A DNA stretch of 64,000 nucleotides from Vitrella brassicaformis CCMP3155 (lineage: Eukaryota > Protista > Chromerida): assembly GCA_001179505.1 (NCBI GenBank), contig CDMY01000366.1:186001-250000 (forward strand), in the 5' to 3' direction. Under the pieces are notes generated by a model, which saw only the letters and a list, made by a program, of their open reading frames with translations, was not told the origin of the DNA and searched no databases. This document shows, one piece after another, positions 2 to 29,457 of this stretch. Each line of letters begins with the position of its first letter. Position 1 is the first letter of the stretch. Both the position numbers and the translations under genes were made by a program.

Positions 2-2725
2 TATGACACCCAGCGAAAGGCATGCTTCCTCAAGCGCCTCCAGGAGCCGCGCGTTGAGGCTGCCGGCCTCGTCTCGGGCACCAAGGCCTGCGTCAAGACC
101 CACACCGCCGCAGTGCAGGAGGCCGACCTGCCCACGGGTGTCAAGCACAGGGGCGCGCTCTCAGGTGCGCTGGCGAGGCTGGCAGAGGCGGTGGCCTTTG
201 AGGAGGAGGGAGCGGTGCGGCCGGAGGGCAGCAAGCCGTACCCCTTCTGGGGCAAGGGCCACGTGAGCCGGGAGGACAGGCTGTCTTTGGAGCAGCGGCT
301 GATGGCCACCCGCGGCCCCCACCACGTCAGGGACAGGCACGTCCTGGTGGAGGTGGTGCCCTCGGCCCCACCATCTGAGGGCGAGGAGGGCGGCGGACAG
401 ATGGAGGAGCTCAAACAGGTGTTGTTGGACAAGGGGCTCAAGAATGCCACCGTCGCGCGCAGGCTGCTCACCGGGTGGCTGCCTCTCGAAGCCCTCAAGG
501 AGGTCGACTCACTCAAAACGGTCAATTCGGTCCGCCCGGCGCTCTACCGCACCAACAGAGGCCTCGTCAGCGCCCAGGGGCGCAAGTCGATGCGGGCCGA
601 TATGCTGACCAAGCGGCTGAATGTCACGGGCAAGAATGTCAAGGTCGGTGTGGTGTCCGACACGTACGACAACTTCTGCTGCGGCGAGCATCTCACCAAC
701 GCGCAGCAGGACATTGAGAACGACGATCTGCCGGCTGACGTGGACATTCTGATGGAGGGGGGGTATTCTCTTGCTGGCGGGAGCGACGAGGGCCGTGCGA
801 TGCTGCAGCTCATCTACGATATCGCCTCCGACGCCAAGCTGGGCTTCCACACGGCCGACGGAGGCACCGCTGTGTTTGCACAGGGCATCAGAGGTCGGTG
901 AGAAAGAGATAGACGGACGAGGAGTGTCCCAAAACAAGCAGGGCTCACCTGTCCTGTGGTGGTGCTTCTCTTGTTTTGTCTTTTCTTCCAGCGCTTGCCG
1001 AGTGGGGAGCCGACGTCATTGTCGATGTAAGTAACCAACGAACGCATCACCAACACAAAATGCCTCCACCCACCCACCCACGCCCTTGCATCATTCTGAC
1101 CGCTCCCGTCTTGTGTGTGTGTGTGTGTGTCAGGACATAGTCTATTTCACCGAGTCGTTCTTCCAGGACGGCGAGGTGGCGCAGGCGGCGACAGAAGTGT
1201 ACAAGCAGGGCGTGGCCTACTTCTCGGCTGCCGGCAACATGGCCGACGAGTCGTACGAGAGCGTCTTCAGGGACAGCGGCGAGGAGGGCCAGCTCGGAGT
1301 CCTCCACGACTTCGATCCAAGCGACGGCGTCACCGTTTATCAGCCCATCAAAGTGCCGGTGCGTGAGTGAGTGAGTGAGGCAATGCATGAGCGGGACGAC
1401 CTGCATCGCATCTTTCGCTGTGTATGCTATGCGTGTGCGTGTGGTTGGTGCACTCGCTGCGCGTAGGTCGGTGAGTCGTGGATGGCGATTCTCAACTGGG
1501 ACCAGGCGTGGTTCTCCGTCAGCGGGGGTGAGGGCAGTGCGAGCGATCTCGACATGATTGTCTACGACGCCAAGAAGACGCCTGTCTACTACCTGCTCGC
1601 AGGAGGTGCATTGCCCTGCAAACCAAACACGCCCACCTCACGCATTGCGGATGTTCCATGAATGTGTCCGTCTGTCTGTCTGTCTGTCTGTGGGCGGGGT
1701 GTGTTGTGTGCGCCAGGCGGCGATCCCAACATCGGTAGAGACGCATTGGAGGTCACTGCTTTCTTCAATGACGTAGGAAGCACCAACTGCAGGCACCGCA
1801 CCCACACACCCACGCCATTCACCTTTAATGTGTGTGTGCGTATGTGGATGCGTGTGTGTGTGTCGTGTGTTAGGGTACGATTGACGTGGACGGCAAGCCC
1901 GGTCCCGACACAGACTTCTTTCTGGCCATCGAGCTGCACCAGGGGCCGGCCCCCGGGCTGATGAAGTACATCATGATGGAGGGCGAGGCGCCCAAGGAGC
2001 ACTTCACCTTCTCGTCCACCATATTCGGACACTGCAACGCAGAAGGAGCCATCGCTGTGGGCGCGGCCGAATACAGCCAGGTGGGCTGCGGTGCGGTGCG
2101 GTGCGGTGGGGAGGTGGGATGCCTCGACGTGTCTTGGTTTGGTTTGTTGTGGTGTGTGTGTGTGCAGACGTCGCCATTCAATGTCACCCCAGCAGTGATT
2201 GAGCCTCACTCGTCCGTCGGGCCCACCAACATCCTTTTCTCGCCTAATGGCGATCGGATCCTCGATAAGCGGATGAAGCCTGAGGTAACATTTGCTGCTG
2301 CCTGCCTACCTGGGTGTGTGGTGTGATGGGACGTGGTGTGGTGTGGTCTCTCAGCTTGTTGGTCCCGACGGTGTCGACACGACTTTCTTCATCCCAGACA
2401 GAGACGAGGACAACACGGGATTCCCCAACTTCTACGGTAATCAATTAATCAACTCACACGGCCACACACACATACACACACACCTACACCCATGTGTGTG
2501 TTTGACGTGACGCTGCAGGCACGTCAGCGGCGGCTCCCCAGGTGGCGGCTGTGGCGGCCCTGCTGCTGGAATTGGAGCCTGGCCTGACGGTGGATGAGCT
2601 GTACGCCGCCCTCACGGAGAGCGCCCAGGACATGGACAACACCGCCACCGCCAAATTCGATGTCGGCTTTGACACACGAACAGGTACACAATCCGATCCA
2701 TCCATTCTCAGCCGACAGACACCCC

Positions 2726-2757
<32 letters not shown>

Positions 2758-3065
2758 GCCATGGCTTCATCGATGCGGAGAAGGCTGCCGACCTGGCCAA
2801 GCAGCTGATGTCGGAACGTCGTGGGGATGGCGGCTACGATGCCGTGAGCATGCAGGCAGGTGCAGGTGCAGAGGTGGCCACGCCCCCTCCTGGAGCGGCA
2901 GCCGATGTGGCAGCGGGCGATGCGTCTGGTGAGGAGCCGTCGGAGGAGCTGCTGAATGAGGTGCTGGAGGAGAAGAAGAGAGTCGACGAAAGCGTCAACA
3001 GAGAGAACAAACAGGACGACCAGAAGAGGCGGCGGCTGATGAAGAAGGCGGGCAGCCACATATAG
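2..3065 (+). CDS. PAN/Apple-domain + S8 subtilisin-like serine protease, multi-exon, 5'-partial
   Basis: Frame open from base 2: YDTQRKACFLK...GLVSGTKAC (PAN/Apple C-terminal pattern), then VGVVSD (Asp), SDEGRAM (His position = Glu), FSAAGN (oxyanion Asn) and FYG|TSAAAP (Ser codon 2524-2526). Phase-consistent GT-AG introns, e.g. 894-991 and 1027-1133. Stop TAG at 3063-3065. Confidence 0.85.
2727..2754 (+). repeat. (TG)14 intronic microsatellite directly before a CAG acceptor (representative of dozens in the window)
   Basis: Read directly: tgtg...tgtg followed by cag at 2755-2757, then the exon resumes as HGFIDAEKAA. Confidence 0.95.
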
Positions 3066-3103
3066 GTGTAGGTGTGGGTTTGGGCGGGGGGGGGGGGGGG
3101 GGG

Positions 3104-3403
3104 NNNNNNNNNNNNNNNNNNNNNNNNNNNNNNNNNNNNNNNNNNNNNNNNNNNNNNNNNNNNNNNNNNNNNNNNNNNNNNNNNNNNNNNNNNNNNNNNN
3201 NNNNNNNNNNNNNNNNNNNNNNNNNNNNNNNNNNNNNNNNNNNNNNNNNNNNNNNNNNNNNNNNNNNNNNNNNNNNNNNNNNNNNNNNNNNNNNNNNNNN
3301 NNNNNNNNNNNNNNNNNNNNNNNNNNNNNNNNNNNNNNNNNNNNNNNNNNNNNNNNNNNNNNNNNNNNNNNNNNNNNNNNNNNNNNNNNNNNNNNNNNNN
3401 NNN
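3104..3403. other. Assembly gap (300 N) flanked by poly-G runs
   Basis: Run of n characters with G homopolymers on both sides. Confidence 0.99.
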
Positions 3404-24100: not shown

Positions 24101-25089
24101 GAGGCCTGCACGGCCTCCTTGACCGTCGCTGAGCCGCTCGCCGTGGCTGTGGTGCTCTGCGGGGTGCCGGCGTTGAGGGTGCTCGTGCCGGCCTTGGTGC
24201 TGTTGTTGCTAGGGCTGGCCGTGCCGATGCTGTCCTTCCTCTGTCTGTGGGACCTCCTGCGCGACCGCACCGAGTGCTGGTGGTGTTGGTGATGCCTGTC
24301 ATGGGTGGTCCACATGGACCACATGGCCGCTGCCTGCGCCTGAGCGTAAGCCGCGTAGAGAGGATCGCTGTAGGGCTGATAGCCGTACCCGCCGTACCCA
24401 CACGCCCCGGGGATGGGATGGGCGTATGGAAAGCCGGGCAGCCCGGTGGCAGACACGTCAGAAGGTGGCAAGGGGGGTGAGGGGGACGTGGGCGGCCGGA
24501 GAGATGCAGACGAGGTCGACCGCACTGGCTGGAACGTCGGCAGCAGCCGGACGCGCTCACCAGAGGGCGTCCGCACGATGGTGGGCGACATGGGGTCATT
24601 CTCCCTCTCCTTGGAGACGTGCAGGTGCCTCTCGACCCCACTGCTGCCCCGCTGCAGCCCACTGGTGGTGGTTGACGACGATGGCCGGCCTCGTTTCCTT
24701 CTATCGGTAGCTGTGGTGGCTCTGCTCCTTTGGCTTGCGCGTGAGGAGGGGGAGATGGCGACGCGCGGCTCTGAGGGGATGGAGGGCGGAAATCGCTCTA
24801 TTGATGGGGCGAGGGGAGGGCCATTGGGCTCGGCGTGACGAAGAGCGTGAAGACCTGACGAACGAAACCACAGACAGGACAGACAGACAGGCACAACAAA
24901 CAGGCCACCAATTGATGGCTCCTTTCCTCTCAGCCCGCCAGCCCTTCCCTTTCTGTTGGTCTCTCACTCACCATTTCGCTTCTTGGTTCTCAGTGCGGCC
25001 CGGTCAGCTCTCCTCTCGTCGCCCCGACTCCCGCCTTGTCTCATCGCCACGCCCACCTCCTCCAGACCCCTTGCTGTCCGCAGAGGCAT
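21135..25089 (-). CDS. Large low-complexity, intrinsically disordered S/P/R-rich hypothetical protein
   Basis: Long open exons within ORFs 23848-24894 and 21553-23814. Phase-consistent junctions KRN-G-LHAL, NR-N-AKQH and TH-R-YDPP. Ends ...GVSSG* at 21135-21137. No recognisable domain. Confidence 0.6.
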
Positions 25090-25576
25090 CACCCTGTCCG
25101 CTCAGCCCCCGCTCCTCCACACAAAAGGTAACAAGGAAGAGTGTCTCACGGAAGGCGATATAGGTTCCATTGCGCTACTGCTGGGCGCATCGGTGGGCGG
25201 CCATCAGCCCTTTGGAAACGTTCGCTGCTTGGCGTGGCTCAAGCCGAGCCTCCAGAGGTGTCAGGCATCAAAATTCAGCGGTTCCACGGCCTGTCTGCAA
25301 CAAGGGTGGGATGGCGGTGCCACGAACACGTCAGGGAGGGATCATTCGTGTAATTGATGAAAAGAATGCGAGCTAAGGAGTCTCGTGAAACTCTTCGGGA
25401 AGGACGGGATTCTTCCTCTCGGATGCGTGCGTCTGCCTTTGCAGCGGCTGTCAGTTGCCGGGCTGCAGCGAAAGAGAGAGCATACGGCGGACGCAGCGCG
25501 CATGTCGGCTGAGAAGCTTTGCAAATAAGAGAACCTCACGCACACAGCAAATGCAGATCAATGGCACATGTCGCAT

Positions 25577-25879
25577 CTATCGCTTTTCAATGACATCGAT
25601 AAGGTCGGGGAAAAAATGACACAAAGCATAAACAAGTTTAGTTTTATCAAAATCGATCCAATAATTTTCGGAAGTAAGAAAATATATTTCAAAAAAAAAT
25701 GAATTTAAAAACTTTAAATGAAAATTATCCTCTATAGTTTCTACGCATTTAACTTCGTATATACGATTTCCGTCGATACAATCGATTCTGCCATTAATTC
25801 TAACTTCCTTATTGTTAAAGTATGTTTTCTTTTCTAGATTGTTCTCACGGCACGGCATTGAATGAACAACAAAGATCAT
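25577..25879 (-). pseudogene. AT-rich foreign fragment encoding a partial PD-(D/E)xK (RecB/Cas4-like) nuclease domain; candidate giant-virus-derived endogenous element
   Basis: Hand count: 55 G+C in 220 bp (25%) over 25621-25840, against a clearly GC-rich background. ORF reads NNLEKKTYFNNKEVRINGRIDCIDGNRIYEVKCVETIEDNFHL, i.e. GxxD...ExK motifs. Intronless with AT-rich codons. Confidence 0.7.
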
Positions 25880-25996
25880 TGTCTGTCACTCCACCACTCA
25901 CCCACAGCAGGACAACAAGTGCCCTCCCTCCCCTCTGACACGCACGGACCGCCCTCTGACAGACTCAGGGATCCAACCAGCTATCATATCAATTAG

Positions 25997-27633
25997 TCAA
26001 CTATAATACTCCTGTGGCGGCGGCGGCGGCCGCCCAGACGGCGGCCCATAGGCATCATAGCCACCCCTGTGATGATACGGTACCCCCCCTCTGCCTCTCC
26101 CATACGGATGGTACCCCCGGCCTCTCTGCGGCCCATAGTAGCCCACACCTTGATACCCGCCTCCCCCACGATGATAATACTGGGGCGGTGGCGGTGGCGG
26201 TGGCACCGGAGGCCCAGGCCCGTAGTCATAGTCATATCCCCGCTGGTCTCGGCTGCCGTCCCAGGGAGGCCTCTCGCCGCCATACCTGCCGTTGGACGGA
26301 TGTGCCGCTGCTGCAGCGGGGGTGGGGGTGAGGATCGGCGGCCCACGTGGTGGGGCTGCTTGTGGCAGTGGTGCCGATGGGGCCATGGGGGGCGGGGAGG
26401 GCCTCGTCATCTGGTCACCACCCGAGGGGGCTGGTGGCTCTGCTTGTGGCAGTGGGAGAGGGGGCTCTGCCTGTGGCAGTGCCGCTGGCTCGGGTGGCGG
26501 TTGGTTGAAGAAGGTGGCATGGTCGATTCTCGGCTGGTTGGCGAACTCAGTGTTCTCGAGCAGATCCACTGATGGCTGCGCTGCGAGGGCCGCGCACAGC
26601 CGCAGCGCCAGATCCCTCGGCAGCTCCTGAATGAAGCCCGCACCGGACACAACACAGGTGCAGTCATGGCATGCGATGAGTGTGTCTGTCTATCGTGCGT
26701 CGTGTACCTTACCTGTCCGTCTCGGCTTTTCTTGAGAGGTTTGTCTTCGTTCCACGGGTTCCGGAGGTCACTGACACGCTCGAAGCTCAGCTGGCACTGA
26801 TGCAGCCACTGCACGTGAAAGTTGGGCGCCAACCGGGTCGAGAAATCGCCCCAGATGCCTGCACACATAGCCACCCACAGCCACACATACAGTGAGTGAT
26901 TCGTCCTTCAACCGTCTCTCTGTTTTCTTCTGTCGGCGTCTGCCGACCAGGGTAGAGCGATGTGTCCGGCAGCGATGCCATCCGCCCAAAGCCCTGGAAG
27001 CCCCCACTCTCGTTGGCCGAGAAGATGAGCACCACGTGGTCGCACTGCCGATAGGCGTCGCAGAAGCGATTGGTGTTGTTGGGCAGCGACGCCCATATCC
27101 CACGCTGCACAGACGTCAGGATGTTCCTCAAGCTGTGCGACTTGATGATGAAACACCGAAACGTCCCCTCCTCTGGCGGCGGCAGCAGCGGGAGCCTCTC
27201 GGGCGCCTCGGCAGGCGCGGCCGACACCACTGGCGGCCGCACTCGCTGCTCGAACAGAGGCCGTGGGCCGTTTATGAAGGGGACCCTTCCACCACCCCCT
27301 CCCTCCCGGCCGATTCTGCCCCCTCTCCACCCGGGCGGGCCCATGCGGCCGCCATCGCCCCTGCCGTAGCTCATGGGTGGGGCGAGAATGCCCTCGGCGT
27401 CGGCTCCTCGGGCCTCGTTGAGTCGCCCCTGCCTCTGTGTGTAGGCCTCCATCTTCTCCTCGGGATCTTCTGGGATGGCTTCCGGGTTGGCGATGATCAT
27501 CTTGAGGAACCAGTAGGGCAGCTTCTCGGGCGCCTGAGACTGGGGGAGCCGGTCGTGCCGCTTCCGGCAAAGAGGGCCGAGCTTGCAGAAGCCATACTTG
27601 AAGGGCACACACTCCTTGCGCTCCTGAGGACCG

Positions 27634-27664
<31 letters not shown>

Positions 27665-28044
27665 CACCACACACACGGGAGTGTCATCCATCCATCGGCT
27701 GTTTGTGTGCCTTCCTTCTTCACAACACAACGCATTCAACGCACCTCCATTTTGATGTGTTGGAAGACGCAGTTTTCATCGTTGCAGGTGCCTGTTTTGA
27801 GGAATGTGGGGCACTCGGGCATCCTGGAGAGGTCGTACTGGTGTAGGAAGTCGCAGGCATCGCCCTTCATGCACATGCCCTTGAGCCAGTGCTTGCACAC
27901 GACGCTGTGGCGCCCTCTGCCGGTGCTGCTGACGACATAGGCGGATGAGTGTCCCTGCACCTCCAGCTGCCGCTGCCTCTCCTGGTCCTGACGCTCGATG
28001 GTCTCCTCGAAGTCAAACGACAGATCCTGATCTCCGTCACCCAT
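25997..28044 (-). CDS. CPSF4: CPSF30/CPSF4 with CCCH zinc fingers fused to a YTH (m6A reader) domain
   Basis: VCKHWLKGMCMKGDACDFLHQYDLSRMPEC (CPSF30 ZnF). YTH motifs RCFIIKS, GIWAS, VVLIFSANESGGFQGFGRM and NPWNEDKPLKKSRDGQELP. P/G/Y-rich tail. Confidence 0.93.
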
Positions 28045-28188
28045 CACGAGGGACTCACCTCACCGACGGGCGGATCAATCGTACGGCGGCAAGAGGGGAC
28101 ACAGATCAACTCGAAGGTATCTCGAAAATGACGGAATTGTTGGGCGCCAACCACCCTCTCCCTCCGTAAGTTTCACGTTTGCCCTGTG

Positions 28189-29457
28189 ATGGCGATGCCA
28201 TCCACGCGAATGAGTGAGATGACTGGGTGTGCGGTAGGCAACTGCCTTGTTGACTTGCCAGATTCGTATGGCACTCGCTGTTTTCAATACCCTCTACACA
28301 CACCCCTGCCATCATCCTTCTTCGCCGACACCGTCGAGCGCCTCTACGGCATCCCTGTCGAGTCGCAGCGCCTGGTCATCAACGGCCTGGAGCTCTCGAG
28401 CCACCCCTTCATCCAGCCGTCCCTCATCGACCAAGGATGCTCGTTGAAGGTGCTGTTGCGTCTGGTGGGCGGCAAGGGGGGATTCGGGTCGCTGCTGCGG
28501 GGCCAGAAGGGTCGTCAGAAGAAGACCACCAACTTCGACGCCTGCCGTGACCTCTCCGGCCGCCGCATCCGCCACGCACAGGCGGTGAAGCGCATCAAGG
28601 ACTGGCTGGAGAAGAAGAAACAGGACGACGATCTCGTCAAGGCGCTGGGTGGGGGGGAAGCGGCCGTGACCAAGCAGCCGCACCAGCCGCAGCAGCAGCA
28701 GGCAGCTCCTGCTGTCGGTCTGGACGGCACGTACATCAAGGCTTTGAAGCAGCGTGCGGGGACGATGAAGGACATCGTGCGGGAGGGGCTGACTGAGGAA
28801 AGGAAGCGCACCGCCGAGCTGGCCAAGAAGCGGCCGCAGCCGTCGGGCAACATCAAGCGCCTGTGGTTCGAAGATCCATCACTCATCGACGACGAGGATG
28901 CCGAACAAGACCAGGACACCAAGGAGGAGGAGAAGGCAAAGCCGGCGTCGTCGTCTCTCTCGCCGCCCAAGAAGATGCCACCCACCGCCTTCAAGGCGCC
29001 TCCGCCCGTCCCCGCCCGCTCCGCTCCCCCCACCCCCTCTGTCCCCTCCAAGACCCCCGACACGCCCATCGACAGACCCCCGAGCGTGAACAACGCTGGC
29101 ACGTCTGAGTCGCCGCTGCCGGCCATCGACCAGCTGAAGCTGACATCTTCTCCCTCCCCCACACCCACACCCGCACCCGATGAGAGAGAGGGCATGGAGA
29201 TCGACGAGAGGAAGAAGGAAGAGGATGCCAGGTGGGAGAGGGAGGCGGCGGCCATCGACGTGTCGGCTGCGAGCGGGGCGTGGGAGTCGGCTGAGGGGCT
29301 GCTGGAGGTGTACCATGCGGATGTGATCAAGCACAAGCTCAAGCAGCTGGGGCTCAAGTGTGGCGGCACGCCGCTGGCGCGGGCGCAGCGGCTGTTTTTG
29401 CTCAAGACCACACCGATCGACCAGCTGCCCAAGAAACTCATGGCCAAGAAGACCTAA
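28189..29457 (+). CDS. SDE2: SDE2 (ubiquitin-fold-activated splicing/replication-stress factor) with C-terminal SAP-like domain; apparently intronless
   Basis: Ubl ending LRLVGG-KGGFGSLLRGQ, then TTNFDACRDLSGRRIRH, and C-terminal LKQLGLKCGGTPLARAQRLF. Exact start uncertain. Confidence 0.92.
   Translation: MAMPSTRMSEMTGCAVGNCLVDLPDSYGTRCFQYPLHTPLPSSFFADTVERLYGIPVESQRLVINGLELSSHPFIQPSLIDQGCSLKVLLRLVGGKGGFGSLLRGQKGRQKKTTNFDACRDLSGRRIRHAQAVKRIKDWLEKKKQDDDLVKALGGGEAAVTKQPHQPQQQQAAPAVGLDGTYIKALKQRAGTMKDIVREGLTEERKRTAELAKKRPQPSGNIKRLWFEDPSLIDDEDAEQDQDTKEEEKAKPASSSLSPPKKMPPTAFKAPPPVPARSAPPTPSVPSKTPDTPIDRPPSVNNAGTSESPLPAIDQLKLTSSPSPTPTPAPDEREGMEIDERKKEEDARWEREAAAIDVSAASGAWESAEGLLEVYHADVIKHKLKQLGLKCGGTPLARAQRLFLLKTTPIDQLPKKLMAKKT

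Follow-up and report, generated by a model that had tools for sequence, protein, structure and literature searches.

Endogenous giant-virus DNA is known from protist genomes, in which GEVEs are reported to be widespread (PMC13524828). For chromerids, Supplementary Table 7 of the same study lists at least 7 putative regions in Vitrella and at least 13 in Chromera, of 11–47 kb and with an empty marker column; these entries belong to an automated table and are low-score, marker-less calls. In Symbiodiniaceae, 11 transfers that resemble Pimascovirales genes have been described, with best matches to Marseilleviridae restriction endonucleases (PMC9651163), and polinton-like elements of Vitrella are mentioned in PMC12721341. 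Vitrella is not named in the main texts of PMC10827195, PMC5294986 and PMC10120064, and appears in PMC5371807 only as a polyubiquitin match. Among the open-access papers listed by keyword searches, none describes a chromerid nucleocytovirus, and none the family of viral helicase-nucleases considered below.

Here we analyse a 64,000-nucleotide stretch of Vitrella brassicaformis CCMP3155 (contig CDMY01000366.1; hereafter, the window) that contains a short AT-rich island. We put at about 0.6 the probability that the island holds a piece of a giant-virus UvrD helicase-nuclease gene that was pasted as a small fragment into the host chromosome during break repair. The island and the host sequences on either side of it are as follows.

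25611–25843, no strand: AT-rich island, delimited by change-point fit, window scan and composition profile.
25884–26625, minus strand: host flank, comprising the last exon and 3′ region of a CCCH and YTH (CPSF30-like) gene with its stop at 25994–25996, from contigs and domains.
25301–25617, minus strand: host flank, assigned to the 5′ portion of the minus-strand gene that follows, from an X9 contig (X9 being an RNA-like run).

A preliminary description of this DNA had reported a sharply bounded island of about 25% GC in GC-rich surroundings, and its count is exact (55 G+C in 220 bases at 25621–25840). A maximum-likelihood change-point fit gives an island of 233 bp and 24.9% GC, flanked by DNA of 54% GC. 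The lowest 150-nucleotide GC value is 0.22, compared with a mean of 0.58 (sd 0.056) across the 64-kb window, and the window scan finds no other segment below 0.40 GC once an N gap is set aside. That gap (300 bases at 3104–3403, between poly-G runs) accounts for the other low-GC bin. The codon GC of the nuclease core described below (0.38/0.20/0.31) lies inside the range of 17 relatives and is unlike host GC3 (0.82, two host frames), which bears out the view that the base composition is unameliorated. We found neither a target-site duplication nor terminal inverted repeats at the island, and the longest words common to both junctions are 6 nucleotides (direct) and 7 nucleotides (inverted). The island has no match in Rfam and folds no better than its shuffles (z = +0.81).

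The upstream gene (25994–28059, minus strand) encodes CCCH zinc fingers and a YTH domain, and its intron at about 26627–26712 is confirmed by a spliced contig. The best PDB match of the YTH domain is 7NG2 (85 bits versus 50 for the next), which we take to be Toxoplasma CPSF4. The combination of CCCH and YTH domains is an architecture of plants and apicomplexans. These features are consistent with a CPSF30 gene, the identity first proposed, and the best match fits an apicomplexan relative. Head-to-head with this gene is an SDE2 gene (28192–29457, plus strand) in a single long open frame. Contigs of a spliced RNA-like run extend down to 25884. On the other side of the island, 24855–24971 is a spliced intron of the downstream gene, and the CT..AC joint there is the basis on which we assign a strand to 25301–25617. 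An ATG at 24974–24972, read through this intron, gives only 19 codons; therefore, the true start may be elsewhere, and this short frame may be an upstream open reading frame (ORF). The RNA-like contigs end at 25884 and 25617, positions that bracket the island and do not map transcript ends. At 25943–26098 and 26148–26409, the sediment metagenome X11 contains two alleles: one is identical to the window, and the second differs by 10 substitutions and by 10 gap letters over 168 nucleotides. Thus, wild strains diverge at the right flank of the island and could carry an empty site.

A rival reading is an assembly chimera or contaminant, in which the assembler joined viral DNA to host sequence. We sampled 150 words from 25000–26500, about 27 of which are expected to touch the island, and found them at shares of 1.00 in each of the sequencing runs X1–X4 and 0.97 in X5, runs that represent three samples and as many studies. 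The measure is reliable, as judged from its agreement with contig coverage in two RNA-like runs (0.53 versus 0.55, and 0.31 versus 0.29), and for a given junction, there is a chance of about 0.18 that none of the sampled words extends across it by at least 8 bases. Contigs were compared from 4 of the 18 word-holding runs (two spliced RNA-like runs of one study and two sediment metagenomes), a set that lies outside X1–X5. They cover both flanks and not the island; in these four runs, which include the sediment runs X11 and X14, no contig bridges the island, extends over the right junction or joins the flanks. No run listed as RNA is among the word-holding runs, and the lack of island coverage in the RNA-like contigs speaks neither for nor against expression. 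This pattern, and the possibility that one word-holding run is the source of the assembly, would fit a chimera. However, because five runs of three studies hold 97–100% of the sampled words, we regard a chimera as unlikely, and strongly so. One X14 contig matches 45 nucleotides of the island with loose ends and 9 mismatches, a match that we attribute to chance.

The coding features at the locus are the following.

25577–25879, minus strand: 100-codon ORF of composite make-up (host-like flank, viral core and tail), defined by the reading frame (model pLDDT 49.8, pTM 0.31).
25712–25846, minus strand: remnant, 45 codons long, of a RecB/Cas4-type nuclease core, identified by profiles, pairwise comparisons, alignment A5 and a DNA profile match.
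25611–25711, no strand: AT-rich tail, 19.8% GC, that continues the frame without a stop and has no significant family match.
25676–25710, plus strand: weak match, in inverted orientation, to 25798–25831 (26 of 35 columns), borderline at an uncorrected P of 0.04–0.07.

The minus-strand frame is open for 100 codons from an ATG at 25879 to a stop at 25577–25579, as had been described, and carries a family signal in only 45 of them (codons 14–58 of the stop-to-stop frame, 25846–25712). The ATG and roughly the first 11 codons fall in the host-like flank of 54% GC, and homology begins at most 3 bases from the composition boundary. Within the core, which has no stop and no frameshift in 45 codons, the motif II aspartate of G32-x-x-D35 (25783–25781) and the motif III E44-x-K46 (25756–25748) are intact at family spacing and invariant in alignments A1 and A5; the initial reading of these residues as a PD-(D/E)xK core was correct. 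The glutamate at 25846–25844, at the very edge of the island, may be the motif I acidic residue: it aligns with the F-E of L010, L049 and L116/L084 but not with that of L027 or L085. A lysine at 25714–25712 replaces the glutamine of the QxxxY motif of the relatives (alignment A5). That motif, suspected from the outset to be broken, is absent from the island and is kept in 59 of 64 relatives selected by their helicase part and in 132 of 138 of another set. The ORF has no N-terminal UvrD/SF1 helicase. The structural model, which covers 25592–25846 (10-row alignment), predicts that the island peptide lacks a complete alpha/beta fold; the model of an intact relative, L031, reaches a pLDDT of 90.0 and a pTM of 0.76 (18-row alignment). 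The product would not be active as an enzyme, because the helicase, the N-terminal helix of the domain and QxxxY are all missing.

Homology searches with the single sequence returned nothing significant: phmmer with the ORF found nothing at E ≤ 0.001 among 1.84 billion proteins, a word-indexed search for longer homologues yielded 0 of 24 candidates, Pfam and NCBIfam contained no match to the ORF, the PDB gave chance matches only and a strict motif pattern had no match. The whole ORF also had no match in a phage collection. Motif scans recovered relatives. A scan of viral contigs gave nine loci, eight in giant-virus bins, with UvrD domains in eight of the nine ORFs and the ninth partial. Metagenomes gave eight loci, which by sequence are four long and three partial family proteins and one stand-alone phage-like nuclease. 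In a further scan, 9 of 55 stretches were confirmed, all inside ORFs of 678–935 residues, and in another, 7 of 56 (five family members, one phage nuclease and one unrelated); among seven additional loci, L021 was the only family member. Because the scans were shaped on the query, relatives were re-collected through the helicase part alone. This gave 79 loci, 73 of which had a Walker A ORF; after 9 motif-found loci were dropped, 64 C-terminal parts remained.

The profile of these 64 C-terminal parts scores the island ORF at 36.6 bits (E = 2 × 10−10), the sole match among 1,494 window ORFs, whereas the best of 5,000 shuffles reaches 11.7 bits. A second, more distant helicase-selected set (120 proteins) gives 18.8 versus 11.7 bits; both helicase searches were seeded with motif-picked sequences, so that the independence of the profiles is partial. 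A DNA-level profile, built from partly motif-selected sequences, matches 25722–25806 (E = 1.8 × 10−10). The best pairwise matches, to L010, L015 and L049, score 44.3 bits with 59–65% identity over 31–34 residues (tblastn, 49-residue query); L049, which came through the helicase search, shares 20 of 31 residues with the island. A BLASTp/HHpred-type check had been proposed at the outset: single-sequence searches are not significant database-wide, and the profile score stands far above its shuffles. At the sequence level, the fragment is demonstrably homologous to the C-terminal RecB/Cas4-type nuclease of UvrD helicase-nucleases of about 650–1,000 residues, in agreement with the original suggestion of a nuclease attached to SF1/UvrD helicases of nucleocytoviruses, whose C-terminal PD-(D/E)xK domains are the closest matches. 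It is scarcely credible that the island is an AT-rich spacer or regulatory element of the host, with a merely accidental likeness to a nuclease in its antisense frame. The lack of a database-wide single-sequence match would fit such an element, as would a location where a terminator or promoter could be, but the margin of 36.6 over 11.7 bits, the 20 of 31 identities to L049 and the DNA-level match largely refute it, and no similar AT-rich spacer occurs elsewhere in the 64 kb.

The helicase-nuclease family is large (1,845 proteins at E ≤ 1 × 10−20 for one seed), and its nuclease domain has no Pfam match in the relatives’ ORFs examined. L010 has no close relative among the viral contigs and one further protein in the database. 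In one giant-virus bin, the gene is split into two ORFs (L021:1194–1517 and 1624–3330), and an 899-residue member, P0080, carries an added GIY-YIG domain.

A giant-virus (Nucleocytoviricota) origin of the core is likely. An NCLDV major capsid protein (Capsid_NCLDV) is encoded in all four of the searchable close-relative records (L026, L041, L049 and L033), and the island peptide matches each of these four and not the one bacterial genome. L031 (L031:2264–4312) has an intact, Cas4/AddA-like domain, and its best viral match is the helicase/exonuclease of Harvfovirus (Mimiviridae, Klosneuvirinae; E = 4 × 10−12). Nucleocytoviricota is the commonest phylum in the top six Atlas clusters listed for L031. 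At full length, L031 matches nothing in the phage collection, and it matches plasmids through its helicase part only (20–37% identity, eight plasmids).

A prokaryote or phage donor, either an AT-rich helicase-nuclease of Mollicutes or Bacillota or a stand-alone phage Cas4-like exonuclease, is quite unlikely and has several observations in its favour. The Atlas contains sister helicase clusters labelled Bacillota, Mycoplasmatota, Uroviricota and Ascomycota, among them clusters labelled Bacteria at 56–69%, the top Atlas match of the island itself is a small, phage-dominated PDDEXK_1 cluster (0.94, 150 of 256 features), and PHROG 1706 matches at 17 bits (E = 0.006). Two phage nucleases, L014 and L118, have the same motif wording, and L118, a stand-alone enzyme, is 68% identical over 19 residues. 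Of the joint best matches, L010 and L015 are metagenome contigs that are short and unclassified. However, the best tblastn scores of the 49-residue query are only 28 bits in phages (50,697 records) and 30 bits in plasmids (72,556 records), compared with 44 for the relatives above, and L118 lacks the cysteine after E-x-K and scores less than 30 bits. Blastn of the island against phages and plasmids gave short AT-rich matches, with E values of 0.02 or worse and at most 24% of the island covered among the matches listed. A motif scan of 185,579 GTDB genomes yielded a single match, in a closed 32-codon frame; the pattern catches 10 of 147 family proteins and none of the 64 helicase-selected ones, and the blank is therefore weak evidence. 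The phylogeny that had been proposed was built (84 rows and 62 columns, without a proper bacterial outgroup); the island sits on a long, unsupported branch (length 2.27, support 81/16), and the tree does not place the donor lineage.

The last 43 or so codons of the ORF, its tail, have no significant homology. Against the family profiles, 1,300, 888 and 870 of 5,000 shuffles scored as well as the tail, and two best-of-set tests were also negative; 9% of base shuffles leave a 36-codon stretch of it without a stop. By eye, the tail recalls the later strand and helix of the family, and pairwise scores against L021 and L030 have P values of 0.002 and 0.004 among 19 comparisons. It represents either a continuation of the gene that has decayed and suffered deletion or a second captured piece. 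The first of these would suit a larger endogenous element from the same giant-virus donor, or one borne by a polinton-like virus, that later deletions reduced to an eroded stump. The in-frame position of the tail and its two pairwise scores speak for such erosion, as do the mention of polinton-like elements in Vitrella (PMC12721341) and the putative, marker-less chromerid regions in Supplementary Table 7 of PMC13524828 (at least 7 in Vitrella and at least 13 in Chromera). Nevertheless, we consider it unlikely. The profile tests of the tail are negative, no other segment of the window is below 40% GC, and no other window ORF matches the 113 fetched loci at E < 1 × 10−4, a narrow test. The uninterrupted core and its unameliorated GC fit a young insertion.

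Given a giant-virus origin, capture of a small fragment is probable, and we envisage it as follows. In the parent viral protein, an SF1 motor would unwind DNA and a metal-dependent PD-(D/E)xK site would cut it, as the fold and motifs suggest, in a working mode that may be likened to single-chain AddA/RecB. A small stretch of viral DNA that had reached the cell by infection or uptake would have been inserted, by end joining and with no integrase, into the gap of about 270 bp that separates the CPSF30-like gene from the downstream gene. The insert would have been tolerated and would have persisted because no coding exon seen at the locus is broken. Its youth on the timescale of neutral drift towards about 54% GC would explain why its base composition is still viral; the unameliorated composition and unbroken core both point to a young insertion. 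We infer the boundaries and age of the insertion, and no empty allele is seen in the contigs of the 4 of 18 runs. The proposal of a truncated, relatively recent viral insertion stands as far as viral homology and foreign composition are concerned, with a signal confined to 45 codons and a lineage that is not placed.

The fragment is likely to be a fossil, small and dead, of viral DNA that an alga related to apicomplexans acquired. Infection of a chromerid by the virus is plausible; infection and uptake of viral DNA are not told apart. More tentatively, and on balance with more doubt than confidence, it may be a scar left by a chromerid-infecting large DNA virus, young and perhaps polymorphic between strains, and may now lie at the boundary between the 3′ end of CPSF30 and the start of the next gene. 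If so, sub-gene AT-rich scars could constitute an overlooked, genome-wide record of infection. As endogenous giant-virus DNA in protists is already documented, the value of the fragment is in host range: a sharply bounded piece of DNA that is 59–65% identical to proteins of giant viruses gives a concrete hint that the chromerid lineage encounters such viruses. The fragment further points to an inexpensive method, which is to search GC-rich protist genomes for AT islands of less than 300 bp with viral profiles. The fragment alone, which is likely to be without function, cannot name the virus or prove infection.

Among known systems, the island shares with the UvrD/REP helicase-nucleases of Nucleocytoviricota the core G-x-(I/V)-D-C-I-D...(I/V)-(Y/W)-E-x-K-C and its spacing, the upstream glutamate and the low-GC codon pattern. 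Examples of these proteins are the ‘putative helicase/exonuclease’ of Harvfovirus (A0A3G5A284), a Fadolivirus protein (A0A7D3QTW5) and GVMAG proteins at L026, L041 and L049. It differs from them in that it retains 45 of about 700 codons, has no helicase, has lost QxxxY, is predicted to be unfolded and lies in a host chromosome. The fold predicted for its intact relatives is common to Cas4, AddA and RecB nucleases (SSO0001, 4IC1; ACE1, 9IAB; AddAB, 4CEH), and the TIGR00372 match to these relatives falls under its cut-off; this kinship is structural only (15–20% identity), and the island has no CRISPR or AddAB context. Like GEVEs, it is nucleocytovirus-like DNA of foreign composition in a eukaryotic chromosome; unlike them, it is 233 bp long, consists of one gene fragment and has no hallmark gene, whereas the chromerid regions listed span 11–47 kb. 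It would probably be too small for multi-ORF scanners to call. In contrast to a transposon or polinton-like insertion, it has neither terminal inverted repeats nor a target-site duplication. Small insertions in the style of NUMTs and NUPTs are captured at double-strand breaks. The donor of the island appears viral, not organellar, and its capture by the same mechanism is suggested by analogy; as in those insertions, it is a short foreign fragment with no target-site duplication, terminal inverted repeat or integrase, possibly made of two joined pieces.
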